DNA from: Proteromonas lacertae
Lineage: Eukaryota
Assembly (NCBI GenBank): GCA_002245135.1
Contig: NGBS01000603.1
Coordinates: 1 to 64,000, forward strand
Direction of reading: 5' to 3'
DNA: 64,000 nucleotides
Shown: positions 1 to 64,000 of the stretch, in pieces
Layout of the letters: each line of letters starts with the position of its first letter
Position numbering within the stretch: the stretch's first letter is position 1
Translations under genes and position numbers: made by a program
The notes under the pieces: generated by a model
Databases searched by the model: none
Told to the model about the DNA's origin: nothing
The model's input: only the letters and a program-made list of their open reading frames with translations

Positions 1-1188
1 AGCAAGAGTTACATCCAGTTCTACGTTGACTATTACGGTAACAATGGAAAAACTATGGAACCTGATATTAAGAATGCTGATAAGTCAGGGGATTGGAAGT
101 TCTTTTACGATACTTACGTGTTATCCAACTCTTATAACTTAACCGAGATCAAGGTCTACAACTCCAATGGAGTTCAGTTACTGTATGCAGATCATCAGTA
201 TGAGTTGTTCCGACAAATGATGGTTCAAGTGGCAAGGAAGAACATTGATAAGTATAATCAGAAGGTTTACTTTGATGGTTGCTATGCCGAGGAAAGCAAA
301 GACACTGAGGACTATGAAGTCATGGAGTTTAAAGTAGAAGAATTAAAGGACGGGCATTACCGACGTCTAGTAAAGATCTTCCTTGGAGAGCTCTTCAATA
401 CAATACTTAGTTCAGCAACAGATGTCTTCTTCTCGGAGAAGCTATTCATCACTTTGAGATTCGGTAAGGCTGATGGTTTCTACAACCCTAAGGAAAGTAA
501 GAGTACTAAGTTCAATGAGATGAAGGATAGCACAGCTAAGGATATGACCGATCCAGTAAAAGCAAAGATGATAGAACCCAAGGTAAAAGTTAGCCTAGAC
601 AACTTCTACTTCTACGTGAAGGTTAACAAGGATCCAGCCTGTAATGACAACACGATCAAGTATTGCCTTAACAAGACAATTGACTTCAATGACTTCCATT
701 GCTTTACTGTCACTAGCAGCTCCGGCATGGACTTCTTTCGATATACCTTTACCTTGAATAGTAGTCTCGGTAAGTACATCAAGTTCATTGCCTATCGTCC
801 TTATGATGGGAACGACAAGATCCAGAAGCTAGATAAGCAAAGTACTAAGTTCAGATGGCTTATCAATGACTTCCAATACAACCCAGACTTTGTTAACCTC
901 AAGGACTATGATAACTACCACATGATAAAGCCTTTGCTAGCCTGTAGCTGGCACGATCAGTACAACTACGTTCAGGAGGAAGATAAGTTCATCGAGGTAC
1001 TCAACTTTAGTAACTTTGGCTTATTCGATCTCCAAAATAGACAAGGCAAGAGAATGGATCAAGATATTAAGTTTACCTTTGAGATGTACTCCGACACCCT
1101 CAAGACCGAGAACATCTTCCATCGCTTCTACGTGGTCACTGGCCGAGGAGCTACTGTCAATGAAAGTGGTATCGTGAACATCATCTAA
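1..1188 (+). CDS. Putative double-jelly-roll major capsid protein, 5'-partial
   Basis: Frame is open from nt 1 (SKSYIQFYVDY... precedes the Met at 55). Motif order resembles Polinton/PLV MCPs: LTEIKVYNSNGVQL, VKIFLGELFNTIL, KLFITLRF, VSLDNFYFYV, IKFIAYRP, FRWLINDFQY, FGLFDL, DIKFTFEM, C-terminal FYVVTGRGATVNESGIVNII. Confidence 0.6.
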   Translation, partial: SKSYIQFYVDYYGNNGKTMEPDIKNADKSGDWKFFYDTYVLSNSYNLTEIKVYNSNGVQLLYADHQYELFRQMMVQVARKNIDKYNQKVYFDGCYAEESKDTEDYEVMEFKVEELKDGHYRRLVKIFLGELFNTILSSATDVFFSEKLFITLRFGKADGFYNPKESKSTKFNEMKDSTAKDMTDPVKAKMIEPKVKVSLDNFYFYVKVNKDPACNDNTIKYCLNKTIDFNDFHCFTVTSSSGMDFFRYTFTLNSSLGKYIKFIAYRPYDGNDKIQKLDKQSTKFRWLINDFQYNPDFVNLKDYDNYHMIKPLLACSWHDQYNYVQEEDKFIEVLNFSNFGLFDLQNRQGKRMDQDIKFTFEMYSDTLKTENIFHRFYVVTGRGATVNESGIVNII

Positions 1189-1615
1189 AGGACGATGATC
1201 GGAGAGATCACCTCATACTTGGGATAGATGATATCGATGGAAGGAGTTCTCTTGATTGTGAGCTGATGGTTCTTTACCCACAAGACAACTTCCTTATAAG
1301 TGCAGTCCTTATCTATCCCGTGTAGATCTTTGACTTGCTTAACGTTATCGGGAGAGGCTGGTAAAGCAACATTGTACTTTGCCTGAATCTTGCATTGCTT
1401 CTCGCAATCATTAGCATCTGGTTCTTCAACTCCTCGGAGATGTTCCTCCAGCACTTGAGCTCTCCATTGTTGAATCGTAGGAAGGTAACATTCAGGAGCT
1501 GGATGATGAAGTTCTTGTCAGTCTCAATGATCTGGTGAATCGTTCCTCGGAGTTGTACTTGCCATTGAAGTGCATAAGGAACACTTACAAAGATGTTATT
1601 ATCGGTGCTATCCAT
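1185..1615 (-). CDS. Hypothetical protein of the viral-like element, about 143 aa, split by one frameshift near 1454
   Basis: ORFs 1313-1615 and 1185-1454 join as ...FNNGELK/VLEEHLRG... if one base is restored; its stop overlaps the capsid-like ORF stop at 1185-1188. Confidence 0.55.
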
Positions 1616-1686
1616 AGACGATTGAACCCAATATCAAAAGTTAATGATAATCAGTAAAGCCTTAAGAAGAAGTTAAGTACTAGGAA

Positions 1687-1753
1687 TTAAGCCGATGTTG
1701 AAGTCATTGAAATAGCTGCTGGTTGCTCAGGGTTCTGAGGAGTCTCTTGAGGC

Positions 1754-1787
<34 letters not shown>

Positions 1788-2613
1788 GAACTCCTTGAGG
1801 TGCAACTACTTGAGTAGGAGTAGGAGTAGGAATAACTACTTGAGGAATCATCCCTTGAGGGAACTGAGGTTGTGGAGGCTGATAAGCATTCATGGAGATG
1901 TCCTTGATCTCGTAATGAGGAAAGATACGTACAGGTTGAATAAAGTTACCTCCTGTTGTAGTTCCATCGCTAGACACTTCCTTACCGGGATAGATAACTG
2001 CATCCTTGATCACTAGCAAGAACATGAAGACTTTACCGACGTTACTATAGATGTTCTGCTTAAAGGCCAAGAGCTTCTTGTTGCTTCTCTTCCAGAGAGT
2101 TGCATTGAGAGTACCTGATCGAGGAGTTGAAACATAGGTGGTGTTGGTGATCTGAAGATGCTTAGGGAAGGTTGGATCTTGTTGAGTTGCCATAGCCACG
2201 TTGTATCGTAAGCTCTTGATAAACATCTCGGTGTTGTTGGAGTCAATGAAGAAGGACATCACCCTGGTAACATTCAACTGGAGGTAGTAGTTGGTATCAT
2301 ACTCGGAGATCTTTTCAACCATGGCTTCAACATAGAAGTGTACTTGATCTTGCTTAAGGAAGTAGTGCCAGTACTTACCACAGATACGGAGCTGGGGCTT
2401 CTCAGGTTGTAATTGTCGTTGTTGCTGGGCAGCTCCGGGAAATGCAAAGGAATTTGAAGGAGCCGATGGAGACATCATCATCACTGGCTGGGATATCACG
2501 GGTTGATTCATCATTGGTAAGACTGAAGCTGGATTGAAAGAAGGAGCTGTCATAGGAGCAGGCATTGCTGGGTAAGGAACTTGTTGCATAGCTGGTTGAT
2601 TGAAAGAGTTCAT
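1687..2613 (-). CDS. Hypothetical protein of the viral-like element: P/Q/M-rich termini around a roughly 170-aa globular core
   Basis: 308-aa intronless ORF with the same codon bias as its neighbours; poly-Gln tract. Confidence 0.7.
1755..1788. repeat. (TTG/CAA)n microsatellite encoding poly-Gln
   Basis: Run of tgttgttgt... seen directly. Confidence 0.9.
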
Positions 2614-2668
2614 AGGAAACGATAAAGTAGTGAAAGATAAGATCGACCAAGAAATATATGACTGAAGT

Positions 2669-2879
2669 GAACCTAAGAAGGAACCTGAGAAGAAACCTTC
2701 AAAGGGATCGTAGAACCATCCTAGTCTTTACAATTGGTTTCCACGGTTCTGTAGATGAACTTTTCTTTGAAAGAGTTCTTCTCGTAGAATACTCCTTGAA
2801 GATCATCCTGTAAGAGATCTTCCCGTAGGGAAAGTAGACCCCGTTGAGAAGTAGACCCTGTTAGGAGGAATCCCGTAGG
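2669..2879. repeat. Subterminal short direct repeats
   Basis: GAACCT(A/G)AGAAG at 2669 and 2681 with a partial third copy; AAGTAGACCC at 2832 and 2849; TCCCGTAGG at 2821 and 2871. Confidence 0.8.
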
Positions 2880-2888
2880 AACCTTACG

Positions 2889-3090
2889 TAAATGGGACTA
2901 TGGTACATTATGCCAGAGTTCTAACGAGTGTTCTAGGAGTCCGTCCCCTTCTAGATTCAGAGTTGACCTTTACGGGAGCTTCATCGATGCAATCGATGAA
3001 GCTCCCGTAAAAGTCAACTCTGAATCTAGAAAGGGACGGACCCTAGAAAACTCGTTAGGACTCTGGCATAATGTGCCAGAGTCCCATTTA
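2889..3090. repeat. 202-bp imperfect inverted repeat (hairpin)
   Basis: Arms 2889-2988 and 2992-3090, loop GCA; manual alignment gives 6 mismatches and 1 indel. Confidence 0.97.
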
Positions 3091-3184
3091 TATACTATAT
3101 ATAAAAAGTGTTATAAAAGAAAATGAATGTTCAAACTCGTTTGACATTTTAAAACCAAAAATCAAATTTACTCAATATATTGTG

Positions 3185-5041
3185 ATGTTTGTGATTTATT
3201 ACAAGATTATATTTCCTTTGTTTTTTGTTTATTTTATTTCTGTGGTTGTTTGTTTAAGAATAAGTGATGTAGAAAGAAAAGAGTATGAAGCAGGAGAGAG
3301 AGTATATTTTTCTATTTGTTATTGATAGATTGATATATGTGCTAGTAGATTTATATCTGCTAAAACTAGAATGCCAATGAGGCACTATTTTCTTCCCGTG
3401 AGTTGTTTGGAAGTTAAATGGTGTTTATACAATTTGTTTTTATCTAAATATTATGATAGAACTTATTCCTGTGAGTTCAATATGTTGAGAAGTAAAAATT
3501 TTATAGTGGGAAGTTTTTATATATCAAACATTGGATATGCAGAACACTTGCGTAGATTAATAAAAAATGATAATGATATTATTTTAATAAAAGAATTTAT
3601 TGGAGTGGAAAGACTATCCTTAATAAATTCAATTAAAAATGATAAAGATTATTATTATGAGAATGGATATATATTTGGTAAATATGATAATAGAAACTAT
3701 TATATACAGAATCATTTATCATTTATAATAAAATATGAAAAGATTAAAGAAAAAGAAAATCATTATAGAATAATGGAAATAGAAATAAAACCATCAACAA
3801 TGAATAATAATGTAAGTGTATGTGATAAAAATACATTTAAATACTACATTGATGAAGATGATACTAAAACATCGCTGATGATTTTTCATACTTACAGTGT
3901 TGAATATATAGAAGAATCAAATATAAGAAATGATGTAAATATAAGCATGAATGTTGAAACAGTTAAACCTAATTGGTTTAAATTTGGTTTATCAATGATA
4001 ATAACTGTGATAATAAACACTGTAATTGGTTTAATAATCTTTCGAAGAGTAGTTGAAAATATTTCAAGATATAATATTCATAATTTTGGTAGTTATTATT
4101 ACAATAGTAATTATAGGGGAAAAGATGATGATTTAGAAGAAGAAAGTGGTTGGAAATTACTTCAAAAAGATGTATTTCGTCCTCCACTAAATCATCCAAA
4201 GTCATTTACAATAATCGTATCATCAGGTAGATCAATGTTCTATACAGCCTTTCTTTGCTTTTTTATAATCTATTTGCGAAATTATTTTACTCAGTTTATA
4301 GACATATTTTATTTCTATATATCTCTTCAATGTATCGAAGGATCCACTAAATATTCAATTTATTCATACAAATCATGTGGAGGTAATAGTGTAAAGAGTT
4401 TGATAAAATACATATTATATTACATTCTTTCTATTATAATAATTATATTTTCATTTAGTTATTTAATCTCTTATAAAGTACTTTTAGAAGATTTTGGATT
4501 AACATTGTTATGGTTATTTACATATATAGTTGTTGTAATTTTATTTACAAAAGCTGGAACATTTATTGGATTTAATCAAAAAATATATAAAGAATTTGTA
4601 ATTAACCAAATACCTCGTGAAATTAAACCACAACCATGGTATAGAAAAACAATTCCATCAATGTTATTATCTGGATTATTACCATTTATTGAATTTATGA
4701 TGAATTATCATTTCTTCATTAATTCCAATTATCCTCAAAAACAATATGTACATTTTTTACTTTTCATGATATATACAATGAGTTTGATTTGTTCTTGTGA
4801 AATGTGTTTGATTTTTTGTTATTATCAATTAAATGGAGAAGATTGGAATTGGTGGTGGAGATCCTTCTATACAGGTGGTTCAATATCGATATATATGTTA
4901 ATATATACATTATTATATGGAATTGAAAATTTATCATTAATGTGGTTTTTCTATATTATATTATTTCTAATCAATGGTTCAATGGGATTCTATTCGTGTA
5001 TGTGGTTTATTGTAAAGATATATTCTTCTATTCAAATTTGA
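3185..5041 (+). CDS. Transmembrane 9 superfamily (EMP70/TM9SF) protein
   Basis: Signal peptide, KEYEAGE, intron 3302-3328, EESGWKLLQKDVFRPP, NQIPREI, LSGLLPF, EDWNWWWRSF, KIYSSI. Confidence 0.93.
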
Positions 5042-5344
5042 CATATATATAATAATTGTAAATATAATGAATATATGTTTGTTAAAAGTCCTTATCTGTA
5101 TATTAATGTTTTAAACACTTTTTAAAATCTTTCAAACAGGTTCTAGTATATTTCACAAATATATGTGTATAACCATCATAATATCTATCATCGCATAAAG
5201 CTATTTCTCTTTCGCCATCTTCTTAATTATCAACTATATGTAGAATTGATTTAAGTTTGCAGTTATATTTTATATTTTCAAAAGTAAAGAAAATTCTGAA
5301 AAATTACTAATCTCATTCAACAACTAAAGACAAGCAAATAATAT

Positions 5345-7477
5345 TTATTTTATTAAATTGTGATGAGAAACTGATTGTAGTTCAAGTGAAATATTTTCAT
5401 GAAATAATACAGCATATGGATATAATGGAGAAGGTAAATCTTTAACAAGTAAAACAGGAGATGAATTATTATGACTTATCCAAAATTCTCTTTTATTCAT
5501 ATCAACTATCACTTCATAAATTGAACCATCTCCACAATCATTGAAATTTAGATTTGAATTAACAACTCTTCCAATATGACAAAATTTATTAATATCTTCA
5601 CTTTTACCATTCCATGCATAATAATTACATGTTGTTGATTGATATAAAATATAATTACCAGAATATATATTATCAGTTGATAATCCTAACGTCATTCCAT
5701 CACCTTCACTTACATTTTGATAAAATTTATATTTGATATGATAAACTCCATTTTCCATTTTCAAATTCAAATAACAATGATTATAACCATAATATGAATT
5801 ACTTATTAATTTTCCATTATTTGATATTGATATTCCATCACTTTTGTTTAATTCTGTGAACTTTATATCAATAAATTCCAATGATATTTTGAATTTCTTT
5901 TCACTTAGAATATTCTTACAACTTATTTCATATTCTCTCTTTTCGATTTCTTTATTCACTTTTCCATGAATTATTCCATTTTCTTTATCTATCATTATTC
6001 CATCTGGCAATGATGGATTAATTGAAAATTCACATCGATTTCCATCAAATGAAGGAATTATTGACATTTCTTCATCTAATATATATGAATATTCTGATTG
6101 AGGATATGAAAATGATGTGATTTCTTTTGTTTTTAATTTTTTCAATAATTCTTTATCTTTCATTATTTCTATCATTTCTTCTTCTTCTTTGAAACTCAAT
6201 TTCATATTCTGAATATATTCCATTAATAATTCTTTAGATTTGGAGTTTAAATAATCATCTTCATTTAATATTCTAAAAAGAATTTCTTTTCCACATACTT
6301 CTTCTATTATTAAAACACTCTTTTTATCATCAACAAATAAACATAAACATTTCATTGTTCGATTTCTTTTATTCTCATTATATTCTATACATAATCTTTC
6401 CAATAGATTTCTCTTTTCTGTATTTGAGATATATTCTATTTAAATATATTTTTAGTATTTATACTTTCCATCTTCGCATTCTTATATTTCATTATCATCA
6501 ATACTATCTCGATCATTTTTATATTATTCATTTCTAATATACACATTATTTCATCATTCAATTCTTCTTCTTTCATTCTATCCAATATTCTTCTTTCTTT
6601 TTCATTAAAGACTTCTTCATCTTTATCTTCATTGTAATTGTTGATTATTACATTTTGAATTCTCTCATCTTTTATTAAATATATTTCTATATGATTTTTA
6701 CATTCATTTTTCTTTAATTCTATTTTCATTTCTTTCAACATTTCTTTATTCTCTTTTTCTATCTCTTTCTCTTTTATCTTTTCATAATCGATATCTTCTT
6801 CTATCAATTGTTTAAAATCATCTTGTATCTCTTTATTATCAGATTTATTCTTTTGGAATTTATACCATTCGAATAACCGATTTAATAACCATAACTCATT
6901 CACTATTATCACATCTTTCATATTTAATATCTCAATCAAATTATTCATTTCTAATCTCAACAAATATTCATTCTTATATAAATATTTATATCCTCGCTTT
7001 TCTATTTCCATATTTTTCAATTCTTCTATCTCTCTCAAACATCCACCAAATACATTACATATATGAATTAATTTCATTAATACTTCATCATCTATATTAT
7101 TCTTCATAAATTCATAACAATCATTTATTATCTCTTTTTCACAATAACATAAACAAAACATCAACACTTCACATACACTCTCTTTACAGATTATCAATTC
7201 ACCACCACTGTAGTATTTCTCCATCTCATAATATCCAATTTCTTCGATTTCTTCATATAACTCCAAAACTCCAACAAACTCACTATCTAACAACAGTTTC
7301 TTTACAGTCTCATTTCCATTCACTAGAATTGACTTGATTGACATTATTCGGCTATCTCTAATCTTCACTTCTATATCACTAAAACCACTTTCGACCAATT
7401 TTCGACATAATCTATCATAAAAATAAATATATATAATACCCATATTCTCTTATGCTTTTATTCACTTTTCTTATCAT
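5345..7477 (-). CDS. BTB/BACK-like + putative Ig (He_PIG) + SPRY-like domain protein
   Basis: GFSDIEVKI BTB start, IIVNELWLLNRLFEW BACK-like, FSINPSLPDGIMIDKENGIIHG Ig motif, VIVDMNKREF...LYPYAVL SPRY-like; introns near 7411-7438 and 6436-6464. Confidence 0.75.
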
Positions 7478-7829
7478 CTTTATGTAAATATATAACAAAA
7501 ATAACGAAATTCGATTTTTATCAAAATTTTGAATAACCCAAAAATTAAAATGTGATTTAAATCACATGCAGAAGGTGTGATAAAAACAATAATACTCAAT
7601 TCTGATTCATTAATGCATATTGCATATGATATGATGATATAAATGCTAATTAATATTTGTTGAAGAAAAGTGAAAATTTAACTTGTAATGCAATTAGTGT
7701 GAATATACAAGTTATTTTTAAATTTTTTTATATCACTACTTTTAGTATATTAATTATTTCAAATATAACATGTATAATCAGACAAAATCATCACTCTTCA
7801 ACAAGCAATTACAACATAATATACATAAA

Positions 7830-10800
7830 TTAATACCTGTTATTTAAATATGGACATTCTTCCATATGTTTTTTAAAAGCTTTCTTCTCTTCAACAATCT
7901 TGCAGTATTTGTATTTCAAATCTTCTATTTCGTCAAAAAAATTAGAATCAAATGCACTTAACTCATTTCTTAATTGCATATTCACTATCTTTTCATCTTC
8001 CAACTTCTTTTTCAATACTTTGATCTCTTCATTCTTATCTTTTTTCATATTCTCTAATTCATTTTCTAATCGGCTCATTTCCTTTGCATTACTATATTAT
8101 AATGCAAAAATATATTATTATATACACAGCAAGAGGAGGTTCTTTCTTTAATATTTCTATCTGCTTATTTGCATCACTTAATGCATTTTCTAATTCTCTA
8201 AGTCTACTGGCTCTTTCTCCTGAGCTTCTAAAATACATAAATGCATATTATATTATATTATACCTTTCTGATTTATTCTTCATAATTATATTATTAGCTT
8301 CTTCTAATTCATTTTCTAATGAGCTTATTTTTCTCTTCAATGAAATATTATCTGATTCTAATAACAATAACTGCTTTTGTTTTTCTTTTACTTGATTCTC
8401 TGTATCTACCATTACATTTTGTTTCTTTTGTTGTATGTATTTACCACTTTGTTTTGAAGCTAACTGATTCTATGCAATTATTATATATATATATTTATTT
8501 ATTTATATATACTCTTAATTCATCCATTTCTTTCAGATATTGATTATTTAATCGTTTCTGTTCTTTTAAGTCATTTTTCACTTTCATATACTATTGAAAC
8601 ATTAGGTTATATATTATTATTTATACTTCTATGTTAGTAATACTGTTATTCTTCAATCTTTCTATTTCTATTTTCTGTTTTTCAATTACAGTTTTTAATC
8701 CATCAATTACACTTTCATAATCTCTTTCTCGTTTAAATCTTTCTCCAGGTTTTCTATCAGTCTATTTTATATAATAATAATAATAATAATACAATTGGAC
8801 TATCTCTTCCAACTACAGTTTTGTATTGTTCTAAATCAGCTATTCTTCTTCTTAATGAATTAATTTCAGACTATTTTGTTATTATATTTTGATAATAATT
8901 ATACCATCGAAGATTCAGCTTGGAATTTCAGTTCAAGATTCTCATTCTCCAGTTCCATTACTCGATTCAAAGTATTTTCAAGCTTTTCACTAAGTATTAT
9001 ATTCTATATAATAATAATAATAATAGAATATAAATATACCCTATCTTCTCCACTATATGGAGCAACTTTTCCACCAGTCGATGTTTCACCAATTTCTTTC
9101 CTCAATCTTTCATTATCACTAGTCAAACGATCAACATCATTCTGAAGTAAATTAATTTTGTATTTCAATTTGGTTATATTCTGTTCTTGATCAACTTCAA
9201 CTTGCCTTTTTAATTTGTTATTCTCTTCTTCTAGTCGGAATATTTCATTCTTATATTCTTGAACTCTTTCATATTCTTTCAATAAGTCTTCTTTTGTCAT
9301 TTCAGAATTTATATCTTTCTTCTTTTTCATAGTTCTATCACCTTGTAGTTGTTTATTTCTTCTTCTTTCTTCATCTAAATTCTTTTCAACAACATCTAAC
9401 TGTTGTTTTATTTCAGTAAACTTCTGTGTTAATATATCATATTTCTTTGTTATTTTGTTCAATTCACTTTTTGTTCTTTTTAATTCAATTTCTTGATTTT
9501 TGTATAACGATTCATATCTATTTGGAGATATATTCGTTTTCTCTTCAGATCTCGATGGTGGTTCTGGTAATGCTGGAGATTCTTGTATTGGAACAGCTTG
9601 AATAGATTCTAATGCTTTGTTGGCTATTGTCAATTTCTTTATTTCTTTTTGTAGTTTGAGTATTTGTAGATCTTTTGCATTATCTTCCTTTTCTTCATTC
9701 ATTGTTTTTCTTTTTGATTGTAATAGTTCTTTTTCTATTTTTTTCGTTTTTCCAATTATTTCTGATTTTTGATCTTCAATTCTTTGTATTTCTTGTCTTA
9801 AATTATCTCTTTCATTCCTATAATCATCTACTTCCTTATGAAGATTATCAACATCACTCTATTGTTATTATTATATAAATTAATATATAATATTTAATAC
9901 TTGTAGTTTTTTAATCTCTTCATCACTTTCATTCTTCACTTGTTTGACTTTATCTTTTACAGTTTTTAGTTTGTTTTTAAGTGACTTTACTTCATTTTGA
10001 AGGTTGTTGTTTTCTTCTTGAACTTGGATTGTTCTTTTATCAACTTCTCTATCAACATTACTTTCTAAATCACTTATCTTTTTCTATTCAAATAAATATA
10101 ATAATAACAAAATACCTTATTATCTTCATTTATTACTTTTAATTCCATCACTTTCTTCTCCAATTTCGCTAATTTTGTTTTATAATCATTTTCTACTTCA
10201 TTTAATGTTCTATGTATCTTTTCAGGTTTAAATTTCTTTGTAGATGAATTCATTGCATCTAATCTATCTAATTTCTCTTGTAATTCATCTACACGAATAT
10301 GTAATTGTTTATATTGTTCTTCAAATCGATCTCTTTCATTTTGAGCATGATCCAACTAAATAATCAATAATGAATTATAATAAATATACTTGTTGTTCTA
10401 AATGATTTATTACATTTCTTGATTTAGCCAACTCATCTTCACTCATTTGACATCTATCCAATAATTGTTCATTTATCTCTTGTATTTTCTGTATAGTTAG
10501 TGCTTGTTTAGTGGGAGAATTATTATTTGGCCCATTTAATAAATTGTCATGTAATCTTTCAATTTCTGCATTTTTATCTTCAATTATTTTCTTATATTTC
10601 TCATCATATTGTTTTCTGATCTTTTCTCTTTCTCCTGTTAAATTATTTCTCATGTCTTCGATTTGTTGTTCATACTGTTCAATCACTTTTTGTTTTTCTT
10701 CAATAATTGCCTAATAACAATAATAAAAACAATAACATGATAAAAATATATATACTTTTGTTTGTTCTATAGTTTGTTTCGCTAAATGATTATCATTATT

Positions 10801-17590: not shown

Positions 17591-18200
17591 ATGAATCCAC
17601 ATACTGTGAGATCGTCAGTAAATCGGTTTGGTTATCTAAGCCGAAGATATATGTTAACTGTTGGAGCAGATGTAAATATAAAACCAATAACACATGACTT
17701 AAAAGACGAGCATGATTTAACCAATTTTGTATTAATAAATGGTATTGCTTTTGTTTTATAAATATTAATGCAGGTTTACCTGACGGTTTAGAATTAGAGA
17801 ATTCAACAGGAGAGATACATGGTGTTCCAGAATATGCTACAACTGGAGATATTCAAATAGAAATATCTTGTGAAGATTTAAAATTTGATCCTCCAGACAA
17901 TTTACGATATTTTACTCTAGAATTTAATATTGAAGATGTAGAAACAGTTCCTAAAACTCCAGATTTTAGAGATCTGTATAATACATATAATATACAAGGA
18001 AGAAATGAAGTTATTACACCAACTTCTACCAATTCTATTAATTCTCCTTCCACACCAGATTTTTCAGCTTTAGTAGATTTATCATATAAATTTAAGCATG
18101 AAGAATGTATTTGTTGTTTAATATTTCTATCAAATAGGGTATTTTTCAATCGTTCTACTATTCAATATTATTGAATTAGTATTTGTAATGTTAATTTAGT
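17591..18200 (+). CDS. Small putative-Ig (He_PIG) domain protein with a C-terminal hydrophobic segment
   Basis: Spliced reading gives GLPDGLELENSTGEIHGVP; 3' end uncertain. Confidence 0.55.
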
Positions 18201-21465: not shown

Positions 21466-23432
21466 TCAATTTAATAATGAATTTATGGATCTCTTCTTCA
21501 TTTTTGGCCAATCAGGATTAATCAACTCCAATTCAGGTAAATCAGTATAATCTATTTCAATATCAGGATAATTACTAATAGTTTTAGTAAAATTCTCTTT
21601 TGAATAGCATTTTTCACAATAATCATTAACATTAAACTTATATTTAGCTATACAATAACAGGCATGTTTACATGGTATTCCAAAGTATCTATACTCACCA
21701 CAATTACAATATTTTTTCTTCAAATCAGTAATATAATTCACAACTTTCTTTGTATTCTTTGTTGTCTCATTTACTTCATATTTTCCTTCACTTATTTTCT
21801 TTGCTGTTAATCCAACATTATCATTACTGTTTTCACATATTTTATTATATATTTTATCATTAACTTGATGTTCCCATGAATTCATAATTTTTTCTCTTTC
21901 CCTTTCATTTTCAGTGACAAATCTGTGAATAAACAATGGAATTAAAGGAATAAAAACATATGGAATCTTTCCTAACAAAGTATTAAATTCTGATACTAAT
22001 TTATTACCTAAATTTCCATATAGTTTATGTTTAATTTCAAATCTTCGCCATGGTCCTTCTATTCCTTTTAAATAATTCAATAAACAAGTGTTTATATGAT
22101 TTGAATTATATTTTTTCTTTTCTAAGTCTTCAATCATTCTATCATATTCATCTTTTGTTTTACATTTCCCTAATTCAACTATTTTATCAAATGTTGAGGT
22201 ATTTGTATCATTTGAATTAATAATACTTTGACCAACTGAAGTTATTGTTGTTGTTGTTGTTGTTGTTGTTGTGGTAGAAGATGTCATATTTGAATTACTA
22301 AATAGTTTATTCTTAAAATCTGAAGCAACACAGCATAAAGAATGAATATGTTCAACTGTTGGATAAACTGATTTTATTGCTTCATTTACACCATTATTAT
22401 AATCACTACAAAATGCAAATTTATCCTCATCATCCCCATCTTCTTCATTATCATCATCATCTTCTTCAGTTTCCATTTTTTCAACGACTGGTGGTGGTGG
22501 AGGTGTTGGTTGTTCTAAAGCATTGGTATTATCTTTTTTTGATCTACCTCCCTTTGTTCTATTATTACTAGGAAGAGATGATGAAGCAGAAGAAGAAGAT
22601 TCTACAATTGGCAATGGAATAGCATTTGTATCTTCAGTTCTTTGTGGATATTCCAATCCTTTGTATTTCAAAAACTTAATAAATTCTCTCCAATTTTCTA
22701 CGTTTTCTTTTTCACAGATACTATATCCTAATAAACAGATTTTATTACATCCATCAATCACTAATGCACACAATAAAACTCCACCTAAACTACTTCTTAA
22801 TTCATAAGATGATAAATAGATTATTTTTTGATATAAATTTAAGTCTTTTAATACATTTTCATACACTGCAAAGAAACTGATGAATCTGTTTTTATCTGTT
22901 TTAATGTGGTATTGGAAAGATGGACATGTAAACTGTATTTTACTCAATAATGATCTTAACTTACTAAATTGTTTTTCATCACTTCCAAAACAAATATCAA
23001 TAATTCTTCTTTTATAATAAGAAGCAGTTGTTTCTGTCATTCCTTTCTTTGTCTCAGCTTTTACAATTCGAATTAATCTAGATGGAGGTAAATAGGGTTC
23101 TTTAATGAGAACTGGTATTAAAATTTTGTAAATTTGTTTTGGAGTCAATAGTGGTCTTGCTTTCTTAGGTGGATCACCAATATCTAAGGATTTTTACATA
23201 TTTATAACGATACGAGTATGATTCTAGAAAAACTTTCTTTAATTTTATTGAGCCATCAATTTGCAAACGTCCTCTCAAGAATACTTTGCAATCCTTCCAT
23301 ATACATTCAAAATTATAGTATTGTCCAGTCCTGAACGAATGTAATTTTGATCCATCTATCTTTTCATATTCATGAACTGACTCTTTAAAGTCTTCATAAG
23401 AAGCAAATTTCGTACCTACTTTAAGATCCATA
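21466..23432 (-). CDS. MuDR/MULE transposase-derived protein with SWIM zinc finger
   Basis: LKVGTKFASYEDFK MuDR N-domain, GGVLLCALVIDGCN, EKENVENWREF, FCSD, CNCGEYRYFGIPCKHA SWIM; intron near 23185-23214 plus a 1-nt frameshift near 23220. Confidence 0.88.
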
Positions 23433-37498: not shown

Positions 37499-38839
37499 TT
37501 AACCTTCTTCTCCATCAGCATCTGTTGCAGTTTGTACTTCCTTATAATCCATTTCTAAAGCAGCTAAATCTTCTCTAGCTTCATGAAACTCTTTATCATC
37601 CATACCTTCACCATAATACCAATGCAAAAATGCTTTCTTCTTATACAAACTGTCAAACTTTCTATCAATTCTTCTAAACACTTCAGAGATAGCTGTATTA
37701 TTAGATATCATACAACAAGCTCTTTGTACTCTTGCTAAATCACCACCAGGAACAACAGTTGGTGGTTGACTATTAATACCAATCTTAAATTCAGTAGGAC
37801 ACCAATCCACAAATTGAATTGTATTTTTCTTTGTTTTAATATTGGCAATTGCTGCATTAACTGATGATGTAGCTACATCTCCTCTGTACATACAACAACA
37901 TGCCATATATTTACCTTTCCTTGGATCACATTTAGCCATCATTGCTTCTGGTTCAAACACTTCATTAGTAATTTGAGCTTCTGATAATCTTTCCATTGAT
38001 GCTTTATGAGCTGAGATAATTGGTGAAAAACTACTTAATAAGAAATGAATTCTTGGATAAGGAACTAAGTTAGTTTGAAATTCAGAAATATCACAATTCA
38101 ATACACCATTGAATCTAATAGAAGCAGTTAATGTTGAAATAACTTGAGCAATTAATCTGTTCAAATTAACATAACTTGGTCTTGGTAATCCTAAATACTT
38201 ACCACAAACACTATAAATAGCTTCATTATCTAACAATACAGATACATCAGTGTATTCTAATAAACTATGAGTTGCTAATACTCCATTATATGGTTCTACT
38301 GGAGCTGTACTGATTCTGGGAGATGGGTAAATTGGGAATGATAATTTTGGCTTTTGAGGATAATCATTTGTTATTCTTTCTAATAAAACACTACCAAAGC
38401 CTGCACCTGTACCTCCTCCTACACTATGAAATACGCAGAAACCTTCAAGACCTTCACAATTATCAGCTAGCTTACGAATACGATCTAAACTAATATCAAT
38501 CATTTTTGGTGCAATATTTCTTACACCTCTTGCGAAATTGTTTGCAGCATCTTCTTTTCCACTGACCAATTGTTCTGGATGGTATAATGATCGATATGTT
38601 CCTGTTCGAATTTCATCAATCACAGTTGGTTCAGAATCCATATAAACACATCGAGGTACATGTTTCCCACCAGGAGTGACATCAAAGAATGTATTTTCAC
38701 CACCACCACCTCCTCCATAACTATCACCAGGAGTTACACCATTTGGTTGGATTCCATGCTCCATACAGAACAATTCCCAACAAGCATTACCTGTTTGACA
38801 ACCTCCTTGACCAATATGCAAGCAAATGATTTCTCTCAT
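37499..38839 (-). CDS. TUBA: Alpha-tubulin, divergent, intronless
   Basis: [56 protein letters not shown]. Confidence 0.96.
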
Positions 38840-39003
38840 CAATAAAAAGAAAGATAAAGATTAAAAATTGTATAACTGAAAGATATGGTTATTAAAAAAT
38901 ATCTTTTCAAAAACCAAAAATTATTAAAAAGTCAAATATCTCATCATATATTGTTTATTATCCAACAAAAAATTATATAAAACTATACATAACAATAATA
39001 AAA

Positions 39004-40717
39004 TTAGGTGAAGTATCTAGCTTCATCAATTTTGGCTTGGTTATTCTCATCTTCAGGCTTCTTTCTCTTACGACTGTGTGTTGGTGCGGATCTAAACATT
39101 ACTTGTTTACCAGTCTTTTTCTGAATTGGCATTTGAGCTCTTTCCATAGCTTTATTCAATCTCTCAAGATATGCTTCTTGTTGTATCTTTAATCTTTCAG
39201 CTCTCACTTTATCTCTTCTCTCCTTCTCTTTCTCCTTCTCAGCACTCATTACATAATCAGAATCCATTTCATCCATTTTCAACAACAATTCATCCAATTT
39301 AGCTTCTAATTCTGTTAACATAGTCAATGTAGAAGGATTGGCAGAAGCATCAAAACCACAAGATGTGTAGACATCACAAATCTTTGCTGTTAATTGATTC
39401 AACAATTCTTCTTGATCTTTATCACCTTCTCTACCCAAAGATTTATCTTTCATTTCTTTAGCCTTCTTATCTTCCACACTAATCTGTCCCATTAGTTCAT
39501 TAATATTAGTATTTAAATCATCAGTTTTTCTTTTCATTATCTTCTCAGTATCAATCACTTGATGTTGTAAATCATCTAAAGCTTGTTCAGACTGTTGTGT
39601 ATTCTGAATTAAAAACAAATTACTTTCTTCAAGATTACTGAATATTTCTAACAACTGTGATGGTTCTTGGAAGTACATTGGTATTTGATCTTCATCTATT
39701 ACCATCTCATTTATTACTGTTGGGTCAAACGTAGGCTCGGGTGGAATTACTGGTAAAGGCAAATCTTCACCTTTCTTTCGGTATTTTCTTCTACTTTCTT
39801 CTTTAGCCTTCTCATATTCAGCATATATTCTATCTCTCTCAGCTTGCCAAGCTCCTAATTTGAGCACATATTCTTTGTACATCTGTTCACGTTTTTCTTC
39901 ACGAATTTTATCTTTTTGTTGTTCTATATAATCAGAAGGAGTGAGTTCATCTAAAAAGTTTTTATATGTTTCACAATCTTCCACTTGTTCTTTTAATTTT
40001 TGAATATCAGTTGACATGATTTGTGATTGTTGTTGTAGTTTCTTTAATTCTGCATTTTTCTCTTGTTTGATCTTTGATTTAGCTTCAGCTTCTTTTATAG
40101 CTTCATGGGCTTTCTTATCATTCTCTTTTAAGAAAGTATCAAAACGAATAGCATCTTCTTCTAACATCAATTCACTTTTTCTTAATGCTTCTTCTTTTAA
40201 TAATGCTTTTTCTTCTAATTTACGAATTTCTTCTCGCTTAGTATCTAATGCCATTTGTACTAAAAACATTTCTCTCTTCTTTGCTATGAAATCAGCCATA
40301 TTTTCTTTTTGTCTCCTTCCTCTGTCGATTTGAGCGGCTGTTTGTGTTACTATTGTTTTTGTCATGGCTGGACTATTTTGATCTATTTCTGGAATTGGTG
40401 CATCAACTGGAAATCTAACTACTCTATTTAATCTACATGAGGCTGTGCTTTTCTCCCAGATTTGTTGATGTTTTCTTTTTTCTTTTTCCTAAATGATTAT
40501 AAAATTGATTCTATATATACTTCTTCTCTATCTTTCTTTTCTTGTTCTCTCATCAAGAAAACTTGTTCATCAGTAGGTAGTTTAAATGGGTTATCATCTA
40601 TTCATGCAAATTAAACAATTGTATACAGTGTACTTCATCACTTAAAGAATTTTTCCTAGTTTCCTCACGAGCACTACTTATAGTTCTCTTGATTGAGGTA
40701 GAGAATTCATCTGACAT
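39004..40717 (-). CDS. CFAP100: CFAP100/CCDC37-like axonemal coiled-coil protein (DUF4200)
   Basis: FIAKKREMFLVQMAL, LEEDAIRFDTFLKEND, MYFQEPSQLL..F..LEESNLFLIQN, KKTGKQVMFRS. Confidence 0.88.
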
Positions 40718-42804: not shown

Positions 42805-45800
42805 ATGAGTACAAGTAATACAAGCACTAATGATGGAGAATTTAAAGCTGTACACTCCATAGTATTATATTAATTAGGATGGTGAAGATGAAGCCAGTAA
42901 TGAAAGGCCAAAGGATATAGGTATAGCTATTATATTCTATTTTATATTTCAATTTTTAATTATATACTATAGCTTGCCCATTTCCTGATAGCGTTGTTCC
43001 TTCTGGCTCATATAGCATTCCTCAATCATTAGTTCCAGGTGGTAAATATGTTGAGGAAAATTATCCAGCTGAGGAAGGTGATGGCGATAATCTTTCAAAC
43101 AATAGTGACAACTATCCAGTAGAAGTAAAAAATAATGAAGAAAATGGTGATAAAAATATATATGAATCAGTTTCACCTCCATGTACATCAAAAACTCCTT
43201 CAGTTAACAACAGCATTGATTATAACCATATTGAGGATAATAATGGTAATACAAATCAAGCAATTAATCCTCCCCTTACTCCACCTCCTGGTTCACTTAA
43301 CAACAGCATTGATTGCAAACATGTAGAGAATAATGTTGTTGTTGATGATGATGATGATAATAATATTCCACCTCCTCATACTACTCCTAGAAATAATAAT
43401 CTTGAGAATAAACACATTCAAAGTAATAGTAATAATGATGAAAATAAATCAAATCGAAGTTTACTTTCACCTCGTTCACTTAGTTCAAGTGTTGAAAATA
43501 ATAATGTGAATAATGACAATACTAATGATAATATTCCACCTCCTCATTCACTTAACAATAGTGTTAAGAATAATATATTTGAAGATAATGATAAAGATGT
43601 GAAAAGAGAATCAATTCCTCCATCAAATACTACTACTACTACTTCAATTCAATCAGTAAGTAATAGTAAGGAAGGTGATATAAGAAATAGTCAAAGTGAG
43701 AATAGAATAGATGAAGATGCTCTTCCCCCTTATACACCTAAAACTAATAATAATGAAGTAAATGATGATAAAGATGTTAGAAAATCAATTTCATCCATCA
43801 GATACTTCATCTACATCAGTTGAAACTACAGGTTTTCGACCTTCAGATAGTATTATATCTACGAATAATCAAATAAATGAAGAGGAGGTAAACGAAGATT
43901 TAAATGCAAGTAAAGAATCAAATACTTCTACTGGATTTAAACTATCAGAAAGTATAGAAACAAGGAATAATCATATAAACGAAGAAGAAAAAGGTGAAGT
44001 TTTAAATGCAAGTAATCATTCAAAATCTTCATCATTATCACATTCTGAAATAGTCGAACCATTAGGAGAGACAAAACCAAAAATGAAAACCACATTAACT
44101 CGTCAAGATAGTGTTGAAAGTGATTATGCTAGTCTTATCTCTCCAAATATTAATAATTCCGTTAATCATAATAACGAACCTCCATTAAAACCACCATCAC
44201 CTCCTCCACCTCCTCCTATAGATCAAGATGTGGATATGGAAGAATCTATTCTTCCACCAAGAACAATTCCTACTTCTGCTACTAGAGATAATGATTCTAC
44301 TCAACAATTAGTGTTTAATAATGAGAAGAAGAAAATTGTATTTAATCCACAAAATATTCCACCTGAGACAATATTTAATACACCACCAAAGAATCAGCCA
44401 ATTATTCCACAACCTTTAATAGAGAATAATGTCCAACCACCTAGTGATCATATAAATGGCGAATGTAATAATGATTCAATGGAAGGTGGTATAATTCCAC
44501 AACCTAATATCAATCAGTTTAGATTACCACATAACAATTTTGCTGAGTTAACAAACAATGGTACAAATACAACACCACCACTTACTAATCCACCTATAAT
44601 GAATAATGATAATAATGATGATGTTCCACCTCCATATACACCACCATCAAATGGCAATTCAAATATTCAACCACCATTTGCATTTAATCCTCCAAATAAT
44701 AATCAATTTATTCCACCATTCAATAAACCAGAGAATAATAATGGTGATGTTCCACCTCCATTTACTGTAAACCCATCAAGTACTGCACCACCATTTATTG
44801 CTTAAACCTTCAGATAATAATAATCAATTTATTCCACCATTCAATAAACCAGAAACAAATGATGATGTTCCACCTCCATTACTGACACCACCATCAAATG
44901 GCAATTCAAATATTGCAACCACCATTTGCATTGCTCAATCCTCCAGATAATAATAATCAATTTATTCCACAATATCAACCTTCAAACAATAATTCAAACA
45001 TTCCACCTCAAAACAATGTGAATGTTCAACCACCAATTTGCATTTAATCCTCCAAATAATAATCAGTTTATTCCACCATTCAATAAACCAGAGAATAATA
45101 ATGGTGATGTTATTCCACCATCATTCACTGCAAATCCATCAAATAATCACAATTCAAATATTCAACCATCACCACCACAAAGTCAACCAAATGTTAATCC
45201 AATATTAAGATTTGCTCCACCTCCTCCTATTCAACAGCAACCACAACAATTACCACAACAACAACAATCAAAACAACCAACAACCTCAAGTTAAGAATTA
45301 TCCAAAACAACATCAACATATTCCTAAACAAGAATCAATACCATGTAAATGTGGAAATAGAGATTGTACTATACCAAACTGTACAGTTCAAAACAATCAA
45401 ATTATCTACAATAGTACTTATTGTAACAAATTAAAAAACAAAATGATTATTAGAAATTCAATAAAATGTGATTGTGCAAATCCAAATTGTATTGGTGTAA
45501 TAAGAAATACAATTATTTACAAAGATGAGCAAGGTAATTTACAATTAGAAAAGAATGCTGTTATTGATCCAACATCTTCTGATCCTCATCATCTTCAAAT
45601 AATACACAACGCTGTATTATGCCCATGTGGTAGATGTAATAATTTTATTAAAAATTCTGTTTTATGTCCATGTAAAAACAAAGATTGTCCTGGAGTTATT
45701 TTCAACGCTGTATTATGTAATTGTGGTGGTTATAACTGTCCTGGTTATATTGAAAATGCAGTGCCTTGTAATTGTAATAACCCAGAATGTCGTGGTTATA

Positions 45801-46099
45801 TAAAAAATGCAGTATTGTGTGAATGTCATAACCCAGGTTGTCCAGGTTATATCTTAAATGCTATTCCTTGTATATGTGGTGATGATCATTGCAGAGGTTT
45901 CATTCCCAATGCTATATATTGCCCAGATTGTAAAAAGGGCAATTGCACAAGATTAGATTGTAAAGGTTATATATCAAATGCAATAGAATGTCCAGGATGT
46001 AATGATCCATCATGTCATGGATATCTTGTGGGAAGAAGGTATTGTATTGACCATATAAATCATAAATGTAATAGACCTGGTTGTAAAGGTTATTTTTAA
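42805..46099 (+). CDS. Pro/Asn-rich protein with a C-terminal Cys-rich repeat array; several frame breaks
   Basis: Consecutive overlapping ORFs of similar composition ending in NAxxCxCxxxxCxGYI repeats. Confidence 0.6.
44600..45170 (+). repeat. Coding tandem repeats (FAFNPPNNNQFIPPFNKPENNNGDV units)
   Basis: Near-identical roughly 75-nt units at about 44677 and 45037 with degenerate copies between. Confidence 0.85.
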
Positions 46100-49639: not shown

Positions 49640-50533
49640 ATGTCAGCACCAAGGATTGATTCACATCAGCATTTTTGGAAATATACTGATGAAGTATTTT
49701 ATATACAAGATTTAATTGTATAGGAGTTTTCATGGATTGAAGATGAAAAACTAAGAAAAGACTTCGCTGCAGATGATTTAAGACCAATATTAAAGGAAAA
49801 TGGAGTTCATGGAACAATTGCAGTACAAGCTCGTTGTTGTGAAGAAGTATTTAAATGAATTTTAGTTTTTTAGGAGAATGAGTTTTTATTAGATATGGCA
49901 GATAAACACCCAGATGTAGTAAAAGGTGTAGTAGGATGGGTAGATCTTACAAAACCAAATTGTTCAGAGAAATTAAAGAAATGGTCAAACAATCCAAAAC
50001 TGGTTGGTATTCGTCATATAGTTCAAAGTGAACCAGATGATAAATTCTTATTAAGGGAAGATTTCTGTAATGGCATTAAGCAATTGAAAGAATATAACTT
50101 GAAATATGATATTTTGATTTTTAACAAACATTTAAAGACAGCAATTGAATTTGTGAAGTTATTTCCAGATCAACCATTTGTGTTGGATCACATAGCAAAG
50201 CCAGACATTAATCATCATGTTCTATCTCCTTGGGCTGATGGTATAAAGGAATTATCGAGATTTGATAATGTATATGTGAAAGTATCAGGTATGGTTACTG
50301 AAGCTAAATCAGATGCATCATATGATGATTTTGTGCCATATTTGGATGTTATATTTAAGTGTTTTGATATAAATAGAATAATGATAGGTAGTGATTGGCC
50401 TGTTTGCACTGCTATTAATGATTATAGGAATGTAACAGATATTGTGAAAAAATATATCAGAAAGTATAAAGAACAAGACCAAGATAAAGTTTTAGGTTTA
50501 AATGCAATTAACTTTTATGGAATACAGCTTTAA
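49640..50533 (+). CDS. Amidohydrolase_2 family, L-fuconolactonase-like (COG3618)
   Basis: IDSHQHFW, IAVQAR, GVVGWVDL, GIRHIVQ, VLDHIAKP, KVSGMVTEA, GSDWPV; two small introns. Confidence 0.88.
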
Positions 50534-61734: not shown

Positions 61735-64000
61735 TTAATTTAAAATTATTCGACATTTGACTAAATCTAATGGCTTCATAATGACATCATCAGCTCCAGC
61801 TATGTATAATAATAATAACAATCATTATAAAATACCATTAAGAAACTCTATATGTTGTTCTTTTTCTCCACATCCTGTTATACCAACAATTTTCACTACT
61901 GAGTTTATATTTCTTATATAATTTGTTAATTCTATTCCATTCATTTCACTATTATACAACTAATCAATACATATATTATAAATATACATTCAAATCAATA
62001 CATATTATATCATACACAATATTATTATTTTCATTCAGTAGTTTTAACGCTTCATTACTATTTAAAGCAGTATCAACTATTCCTATATTGAATTTATATT
62101 TTAATATTCTTTTACATAATGATAAATGTATTTTATCATCATCAATAAGTAATATTTTTTGATCAAAATGACTAAAAGACTTTGAATTTGAATTAAATCT
62201 CACCAATGCATCTTTCTTTACTTCAACAGGAATTTTTATAGTAAAAGTACTACCAATATTTGGTTTTGAACAAACTGTTAATTTTCCATTCAATAATTTG
62301 CACATATTATAACAAAATGATAATCCTAAACCATTTCCACCTCCTGATTGTAACTGAATTGGATCTACTTGTAAATGTTTCTCAAATATGTTCGGTAGAA
62401 CTTCTTCAGATATCCCAACTCCACTATCTGTCACTGATACTTCTAAATATTTATCTTCAAATATTGTTGAGACTATTATTGATCCTCCATAATTTGTGAA
62501 TTTATACGCATTCTATTTTTAACATTATTATATTTATTATTATACAGAAACTAAATTCATGATTATTTCTTGTATTCTTAAACCATCTCCAATAAAAACA
62601 ATTGGAATGTCTTCATTACATATACTTTTATATAATATTCTTTTAGACTATATACATTATATATATAAATATACAATTAGATTATGTTTAAATGTATTTG
62701 CAACTTCCCATAGTAAAGGTCTTATTTCAAATGGTTTATTAATTATTTCTAATTTCCCACATTCCATTTTATCTATTGTTAATACTGAATTTACGAGATT
62801 GTTTATGTATATTGTTTGTGTATGGATTATATTTGCATAATAATCATTATCAACTGAATTTTTATGTTGATTTTCTATTGATTCATCTTTTTTACTATTA
62901 CTTTTTATCTCTGAAAGAAGTCTATCTACATTATTGATATTATTTATATCAAAATCAATATTAAAAGAAAAGATTCGTTTCTTTTACTTATTGATTTATC
63001 ACTTGGATAACTACTACATCTGATTCGACTACTCTTATCACTTAATATTTGTTGTTGTTCATTTTGTTGTTTATGAATATTCTGTTTTTGTTGAATATTC
63101 ACATCTTCCAATGAGGTGGTTGTATCTGTTGATTTATACGATGATATTGAATGTTTAACTAGAGATTGTGGGTCAATAATAATGACTGATTTAGTCTTAT
63201 CTTCACATACATTATCTGTTGTTTGTTTAGTAATAAATGATGCAGCAAGTGATACTGTTGACAGTGGATTTCGAATCTATTTATATTTTAAAAAATAATA
63301 AATACATCATGAAACAGTTGATTAACATAATCAGATTTTGCACTGTTTGCTCGACAAGCTTCATCTGATTTTAGTTTCAATTCCAAAGATAATTTGAACA
63401 TATTATGTGAAGATCTTTCTATTGAATAACTACTGTATGTTATTAATATTATTGAAAAGATCAATAGTATGAATTGATAAATATATTTTTCTTTCTCTTT
63501 ATCTTCCAAACACACGAAGAATAGTATGATGTATATTAATAAATACCATAACACTAATCCAACTGTGTGTTGAAATGGCAAATGAAACAATAATACTGAA
63601 CTCACAGTCAATAACATCATTATTATTATTACGTTTGTATAATCATATTTGGATGAAATATCATTTCCCATTATTATATATCCCATAAATTTGACTGATG
63701 TCTATTACAGTATATCATATACAAATGAGATTATACAAATATAGAAATTGTTCCAACTACTACAAGTAGTATACAGCTACTAACCACAGAATAACTCTTT
63801 TCAATGGATGTGTATTGTATTAGTACAGCATATACAACACAAGAGACTATAATCATTAAACTACATACCAACCTCCACAGAACATATGACCTATGTTCTT
63901 CTGCAAAGTAAATTATATCAGGTATATATAAAACACAGTGGAGTATACAACACAAAAACACAGATATTAAACGAATCTTCCTAGAACATTAAAACACAAT
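61735..64000 (-). CDS. Membrane-bound hybrid histidine kinase, 5'-partial
   Basis: TM exons, ANSAKSDYVNQLFHD|IRNPL H-box, NAYKFT, DSGVGI, GNGLGL, GSTF, receiver ILLIDDD...CIDLN...IMKP. Confidence 0.92.

Follow-up and report, generated by a model that had tools for sequence, protein, structure and literature searches.

Positions 1-3090 of the window, by which we mean the whole 64,000-nt stretch of contig NGBS01000603.1 that was analyzed, probably represent the right-hand end of a Polinton-like DNA virus (PLV) integrated in a flagellated protist, with a terminal palindrome that would fold back to prime replication. That this block is one end of a DNA virus set against a protist contig is likely, and we hold with good confidence that the virus end is integrated; given such an integrated end, the chances for and against hairpin priming appear even. 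The evidence comes from the composition of the block, from an open reading frame (ORF1) related to viral capsid genes, and from the structure of the last 202 nt. The features concerned are:

1-1188, plus strand: ORF1 (P0001), double-jelly-roll major capsid protein as judged from homologues and the predicted fold of a homologue, 395 amino acids (aa) in the window.
2889-3090, no strand: imperfect terminal palindrome of 202 nt, with arms of 100 and 99 nt and a GCA loop at 2989-2991.
3058-3084, no strand: perfect 11-bp hairpin with a 5-nt loop (27 nt) at the outer tip of the palindrome, recognized by its fold relative to shuffles.
3085-3091, no strand: virus-host junction, placed by the compositional change point, the end of complementarity at 3090 and the sequence at the tip.

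The GC content of the block is 0.42 vs 0.27 across the remaining 60.9 kb, where the maximum for any 3090-nt stretch is 0.324. The maximum-likelihood GC change point lies at 3085 (range 3079-3091), and this step sits inside the final 12 nt of the terminal palindrome. Codon third positions have a GC content of 0.43-0.59 in four ORFs of the block vs 0.15-0.23 in four host ORFs, lysine is encoded by AAG in 88% vs 28% of cases, and asparagine by AAC in 61% vs 10%. The border between block and host DNA is thus sharp, as expected of a PLV. The initial annotation had called the block compositionally foreign and had seen it end at a giant hairpin, and both descriptions are borne out. It was also right that stop codons overlap at 1185-1188 (TAA of ORF1 at 1186-1188, TAG of the opposite-strand ORF at 1187-1185) and that polymerase, ATPase and integrase genes are not visible, none being recognized in 1-3090 by family and sequence searches. 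Of the compact, intronless genes that it described, ORF1 and ORF3 are uninterrupted, but the middle gene, ORF2, is spread over two overlapping frames. Rfam gave no match in 1-3400, and a promoter scan stayed at chance level. One run (X1) contains a single 173-nt contig identical to 587-759, which may not be independent of the source of the window, and no further match in 1-8000, an absence to which we attach no weight.

By homology and predicted fold, ORF1 is a double-jelly-roll major capsid protein, as had been proposed for it. Searches of Pfam, PDB sequences and a word-indexed protein collection gave no match to ORF1, and the best PHROGs match had an E-value of 0.17. With phmmer, 16 homologues were retrieved from 1.84 billion representatives at E ≤ 1e-3 (7 at E ≤ 1e-30), and a profile search for the family gave 9 matches, 4 of them additional to the phmmer set. 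The family thus counts 20 or more relatives, none of them named, among publicly available sequencing assemblies, pointing to a diversified, barely characterized virus group; no related locus was found in IMG/VR, JGI metagenomes or GTDB. Because the profile match begins at position 60 of 473, the start of ORF1 should lie upstream of base 1, with about 59 N-terminal residues outside the window (full-length members of the family have 417-514 aa).

The fold was predicted on P0003, the closest full-length homologue of ORF1 (32% identity end to end over all 395 aa, E 1e-73), using a 24-row alignment, and the resulting model has a pLDDT of 82 and a pTM of 0.83. In Foldseek searches with this model, double-jelly-roll capsids came top in both libraries (best E 5.5e-13 and 2.1e-14). 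The iridovirus capsid was best (E 5.5e-13), followed by those of Paramecium bursaria chlorella virus 1 (PBCV-1), Sputnik and mavirus, and the African swine fever virus (ASFV) capsid was also among the top fold matches. Comparison of P0003 by VIA gave Z scores of 23.6 for the PBCV-1 capsid chain (root-mean-square deviation, rmsd, 4.0; 362 aligned), 22.7 for faustovirus (rmsd 4.5; 395 aligned), 21.8 for iridovirus, 18.5 for Sputnik (rmsd 5.7; 385 aligned) and 17.6 for mavirus. A double-jelly-roll major capsid protein, expected of a PLV, is therefore indicated by the P0003 fold together with the homology of ORF1. In a tree of 14 capsids, with partial rows left out, ORF1 forms a long branch (2.03) of unsure placement. 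An FTLN-like word in ORF1 had suggested a rolling-circle Rep; this candidate was dropped after the capsid fold emerged.

The predicted capsid fold does not fix the class of the virus, because its structural matches share only 6-12% sequence identity; the initial annotation had likewise left the class open, and core genes of the Nucleocytoviricota or Mriyavirus type (Mriya48, HUH, VLTF2/3) are not in view. A Polinton (Maverick) in the strict sense is a further candidate, and neither a protein-primed PolB nor a retroviral-type integrase was recognized in 1-3090. The block could instead be the end of a small Nucleocytoviricota-like virus (Mriyavirus- or Zora-like) or a fragment of a larger virus, and not a PLV in the usual sense, which we regard as improbable. 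The top fold matches (the PBCV-1, faustovirus, iridovirus and ASFV capsids) point in that direction, as do mismatched hairpin ends, which are typical of poxviruses and Kaumoebavirus (PMC8956199, PMC7909422). Atlas neighbours of P0003 (0.96-0.97) include clusters with Capsid_N or Capsid_NCLDV on 11-15% of their members and one cluster with Sputnik-type families on 10%, and the recognition value of these neighbours is low. However, Pfam capsid families match neither ORF1 nor any of 10 aligned members of its family, and capsids of Proteromonas lacertae are handled in print as known PLV capsids (bioRxiv 10.64898/2026.07.28.741278). Moreover, no recognizable protist PLV capsid is among the PDB rows listed, so the structural ranking may mirror what has been solved.

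The terminal palindrome is exceptionally stable for this DNA. Folding of 2860-3120 gave -107.7 kcal/mol vs -23.3 ± 3.4 kcal/mol for 200 shuffles (z -24.9; 0 of 200 as stable), and the 60.9 kb of host DNA contain no perfect inverted repeat with arms of at least 12 bp and a loop of at most 10 nt. The arms differ by six substitutions (left-arm positions 2900, 2904, 2920, 2930, 2948 and 2968) and one extra base (2938), leaving a longest perfect run of 20, and the mirror symmetry halts at 2889/3090, after 100 nt. Arms that are not identical and a mirror that stops so soon are, we infer, unlike a fold-back artefact. The tip hairpin is perfect on the right arm; on the left arm, substitutions at 2900, 2904 and 2920 disrupt its inner mirror (2895-2921). 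Accordingly, the tip fold has a z of -4.0 on the right arm and +1.0 on the left, with -8.5 for 3050-3110; this asymmetry rests on three changes and could be due to chance (1 in 4). Two DNA patterns derived from the palindrome had no match in IMG/VR.

Alternatively, the virus may be integrated while its long palindrome is no more than a one-off scar. In this case a broken end would have folded back, repair or integration would have copied it over 100 nt, and the arms would later have diverged; only the short tip hairpin would then serve as a functional end, unless that end had been lost altogether. We find this unlikely. Accidental annealing at single-strand breaks has been proposed in print as an alternative origin of the palindromes of Halocafeteria viruses (bioRxiv 10.64898/2026.07.28.741278), the frame break in ORF2 agrees with decay, and decay of a redundant copy could account for the three substitutions that disrupt the inner mirror. 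Nevertheless, the palindrome terminates at the GC step, and the reading frames of ORF1 (395 codons) and ORF3 (308 codons) are open throughout. When neutral decay at the rate of the arm differences was simulated, both frames stayed open in 8% of cases with substitutions only, in 2.6% with indels at one-tenth of the rate observed and in 0 of 4000 with indels at the full rate, whereas a third of the substitution rate gave 38%; neutral divergence without indels is thus compatible with the data (8-38%). The seven interruptions are also spread more evenly than chance (4.3% of 200,000 random placements, a post hoc comparison). Together, the simulation and the even spacing are suggestive, not decisive, against a pure scar.

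At the outer tip, CA at 3085-3086 is followed by TTTA. Retroviral-type integrases join a CA end. The junction may lie between 3086 and 3087, the last four paired bases then being paired by chance, or between 3090 and 3091; TTTA has a frequency of 1.4% in host DNA. An AT-only 8-bp inverted repeat at 3087-3105 spans the junction and could be a target site or a chance occurrence. The first host gene follows shortly:

3185-5041, plus strand: host TM9SF/EMP70 gene (Pfam EMP70, E 2.7e-73).

Its predicted first exon (3185-3301) has a signal-peptide-like start, is followed by a 27-nt GT-AG intron and is apparently intact, with the junction 94-98 nt upstream of the predicted start codon. The junction is intergenic.

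A further possibility, to which we give little probability, is that the virus is extrachromosomal, linear and hairpin-ended, and that a chimera arising at the palindrome, in the assembly or the library, links it to the host contig. Palindromes are generally known as assembly trouble spots, and the junction is known from the assembly. Among the 20 homologue clusters of ORF1, 14 were looked up, and all 14 come from Logan assemblies only, on contigs of up to 7.8 kb; the contigs of P0019, P0034 and P0051 measure 7.8, 7.2 and 6.3 kb, respectively. On the other hand, the mirror extends over 100 nt and no further, although a read that passed around a covalently closed end should show ORF3 mirrored too. 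The join is intergenic with the start of the host gene apparently intact, and 285 hits of the capsid family are recorded in one protist assembly (PMC10120064). Of the initial claim that this is the end of an endogenous DNA virus, the capsid gene and the position of a virus end against a protist contig stand; the endogenous state is deduced from one end.

The nature of the host was approached through the flanking DNA. A DUF4200 gene lies at 39004-40488 on the minus strand (E 2e-33), and its product is presumably the flagellar protein CFAP100. The host flank, with DUF4200, a GC content of 0.27 and a 27-nt GT-AG intron, fits a flagellated AT-rich protist, probably a gut flagellate of the Proteromonas type. 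In Blastocystis, by contrast, almost all flagellar genes have been lost, and the GC content is 21-23% or 39-55% (PMC12129017). The Blastocystis end motif TGTTTGTT occurs 10 times vs 6.9 expected and is not enriched, and a scan of host intron lengths was uninformative.

Several points weigh against an integrated PLV with a hairpin-primed end. Integration is deduced from one end in a single assembly, in which neither the left end nor a terminal repeat matching this one, a duplication of the target site, or genes for an ATPase, a minor capsid protein, a replicase or an integrase are in view. The fold evidence comes from the homologue P0003 and not from ORF1 itself, whose single-sequence fold reached a pLDDT of 37.5, and structurally the capsids of Nucleocytoviricota match better than those of virophages. 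Support from the decay test is weak, since both frames survive in 8% of cases with substitutions only and in 38% at a third of that rate. ORF2 does contain a frame break, and accidental annealing has been published as an alternative origin of such palindromes. Finally, the host was assigned from its genes and composition, and an exact look-up, made for alpha-tubulin, matched no host protein to a named organism.

For the integrated, hairpin-primed PLV that we favor, the following mechanism can be proposed. An integrase encoded upstream of base 1 would insert the virus into host DNA, and a linear copy would be released on excision. The 3' end of this excised genome would fold into the 100-bp stem and be extended by a polymerase; a nick near 2889, followed by synthesis through the hairpin, would then regenerate an open double-stranded palindrome, which would be the form seen joined to host DNA. 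Each replication round would invert the palindrome and preserve its mismatches, and the integrase or an end-processing protein would bind at the tip, on the perfect 27-nt hairpin. Such rolling-hairpin logic is that of parvovirus replication. More tentatively, and with some doubt on our part, a virus lineage of gut flagellates with a giant-virus-like capsid could replicate by a rolling hairpin, using long flip/flop ends with mismatches, and integrate via a small perfect palindrome that a single isoform would expose at its tip. If true, this would place poxvirus- or parvovirus-style ends on an integrating PLV, and because the virus would occur in a cultured host in numerous copies, the idea could be tested directly. 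A mismatched 202-nt palindrome can record the direction of copying, which short perfect palindromes cannot, and hairpin-primed replication, if it takes place, predicts that the seven differences will recur in independent copies in inverted (flip/flop) orientation, a pattern readable from an assembly with many copies. How the ends of most PLVs are copied is described as an open question in the introduction of a 2026 preprint.

The rest of the block contains three features:

1185-1615, minus strand: ORF2, probably one gene of ~143 codons, in frames 1615-1313 and 1517-1185.
1687-2613, minus strand: ORF3 (P0002), a 308-aa orphan, recognized by its uninterrupted frame and composition.
2614-2888, plus strand: non-coding subterminal region with a one-strand GTAG/CGTAG array and a 14-nt direct repeat.

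For ORF2, codon-usage scores are better in the first frame early and in the second frame late, and a switch at ~1408-1447 gives a score of 13.9 vs 1.1 and 8.0 for the single frames. Neither a slippery heptamer nor a host-like intron was found; recoding is therefore less likely, and a sequencing indel or a real lesion likelier. ORF2 had no Pfam, PHROG or PDB match. ORF3 consists of a 170-aa core, beta-rich by eye, flanked by Q/P/M-rich tails. Family, sequence and virus-collection searches found no homologue, the sole weak hit (E 0.032) being to the Q-rich tail, so that for ORF3 as a candidate minor capsid protein the sequence searches provided no relative. A (CAA)n run at 1754-1790 encodes the polyglutamine tail of ORF3, and similar runs occur in host DNA (17130, 22241, 28669 and 45230).

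In the subterminal region, GTAG occurs 8 times on one strand vs 1.5 expected and CGTAG 4 times vs 0.2 expected, counts reached by 0 of 2000 shuffles in each case for motifs picked post hoc, and copies of the 14-nt direct repeat start at 2832 and 2849. This region is likely an inner terminal repeat, an origin or the ORF3 promoter. GNA-triloop mini-hairpins were considered there and dropped (2 vs 0.37 expected, p 0.055), the region folding no better than its shuffles.

The host DNA showed further features of its own. An alpha-tubulin gene (37499-38860, minus strand; Pfam Tubulin, E 5.9e-55) is intronless and divergent-looking, with a glycine run near the N-terminus, and an exact look-up found no identical entry in the protein collection. 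A 575-aa ORF (21466-23193, minus strand) has a SWIM zinc finger (Pfam, E 4.6e-6) and, by eye, a layout like that of MULE transposases. Two ORFs (5345-6439, minus strand; 17716-18174, plus strand) contain weak matches to He_PIG putative Ig domains; He_PIG is mainly a bacterial domain. An Amidohydro_2 exon (49874-50533, plus strand; E 9.5e-39) looks bacterial by eye, and lateral transfer is possible. A hybrid histidine-kinase fragment (61976-62512, minus strand) combines HATPase_c with a receiver domain, and a cysteine-rich repeat ORF (45209-46099, plus strand) is built of CxCxNPxCxG-like units.

The suggestion that the virus belongs to a possibly undescribed lineage lacks support in its strong sense, because a capsid of the same family (by eye) and palindromic virus ends have both been published already (Bellas et al. 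2023, PMC10120064; bioRxiv 10.64898/2026.07.28.741278). A 450-aa P. lacertae capsid is printed in Table S3 of the former, where Foldseek confirmed it to PBCV-1. Three ungapped blocks of it match ORF1 at 46 of 85 positions, namely 17/33 (123-155), 15/25 (244-268) and 14/27 (284-310); the blocks were chosen and counted by eye, so this identity is biased upward. On this by-eye count, ORF1 lies above the ~25% identity taken as the minimum for similarity to the endogenous P. lacertae cluster. Table S4 of the same paper lists 285 endogenous capsid hits for P. lacertae within a single cluster headed 'new', ~11% of the genome by the authors' estimate, and the related P. lacertae cluster is placed outside the virophage columns. 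This cluster resembles ORF1 in capsid family (by eye), in its PBCV-1-type structure match and in its AT-rich flagellate type of host; ORF1 is a different, diverged member, not identical to the printed capsid.

The main text of that paper does not contain the word 'lacertae', and its main-text passages and supplement rows do not describe the gene content or ends of the P. lacertae elements, which the Dataset S1 plots may map. Article titles and abstract openings likewise yielded no description of the genomes or ends of Proteromonas elements, a scope that covers neither subscription journals nor bioRxiv supplements. The main text of the 2026 PLV framework preprint has no occurrence of 'proteromonas', 'palindrom' or 'hairpin'.

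Among known systems, the Blastocystis MELD virus (Starrett et al. 2021, PMC8502044) likewise comes from Opalinata data and is a linear DNA virus of medium size whose virion proteins are unrecognizable; it encodes PolB and an integrase, neither of which was recognized in 1-3090, and three short motifs sought as a sequence link were absent from the one supplement checked. Vaccinia has functional, mismatched flip/flop end hairpins (PMC8956199), and Kaumoebavirus LCC10 has 102-nt flip/flop end hairpins with mismatches (PMC7909422). The palindrome described here shares with them a long, incompletely base-paired end hairpin (6 substitutions and 1 bulge in 100 bp) in the double-jelly-roll lineage. 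Theirs are covalently closed ends of large, non-integrating genomes in which the hairpin joins both terminal-repeat strands, whereas the present assembly shows host DNA attached on the outer side.

A parallel in arrangement comes from Halocafeteria seosinensis, in which palindromes end integrated virophages and PLVs of subtype 4 beside target-site duplications, and for which hairpin priming was proposed in association with non-pPolB replicases (bioRxiv 10.64898/2026.07.28.741278). As in that system, the palindrome is outermost on a double-jelly-roll virus and adjoins host DNA. The capsids of the Halocafeteria PLVs fall into clusters separate from the P. lacertae capsids, and the one length stated there is 52 nt (the supplements may give others), compared with 202 nt and 7 interruptions here. 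In summary, published precedents exist for the capsid cluster as well as for palindromic ends, and the variant described here is a palindrome four times longer than the published 52-nt example, mismatched, and with a perfect hairpin nested at its tip.

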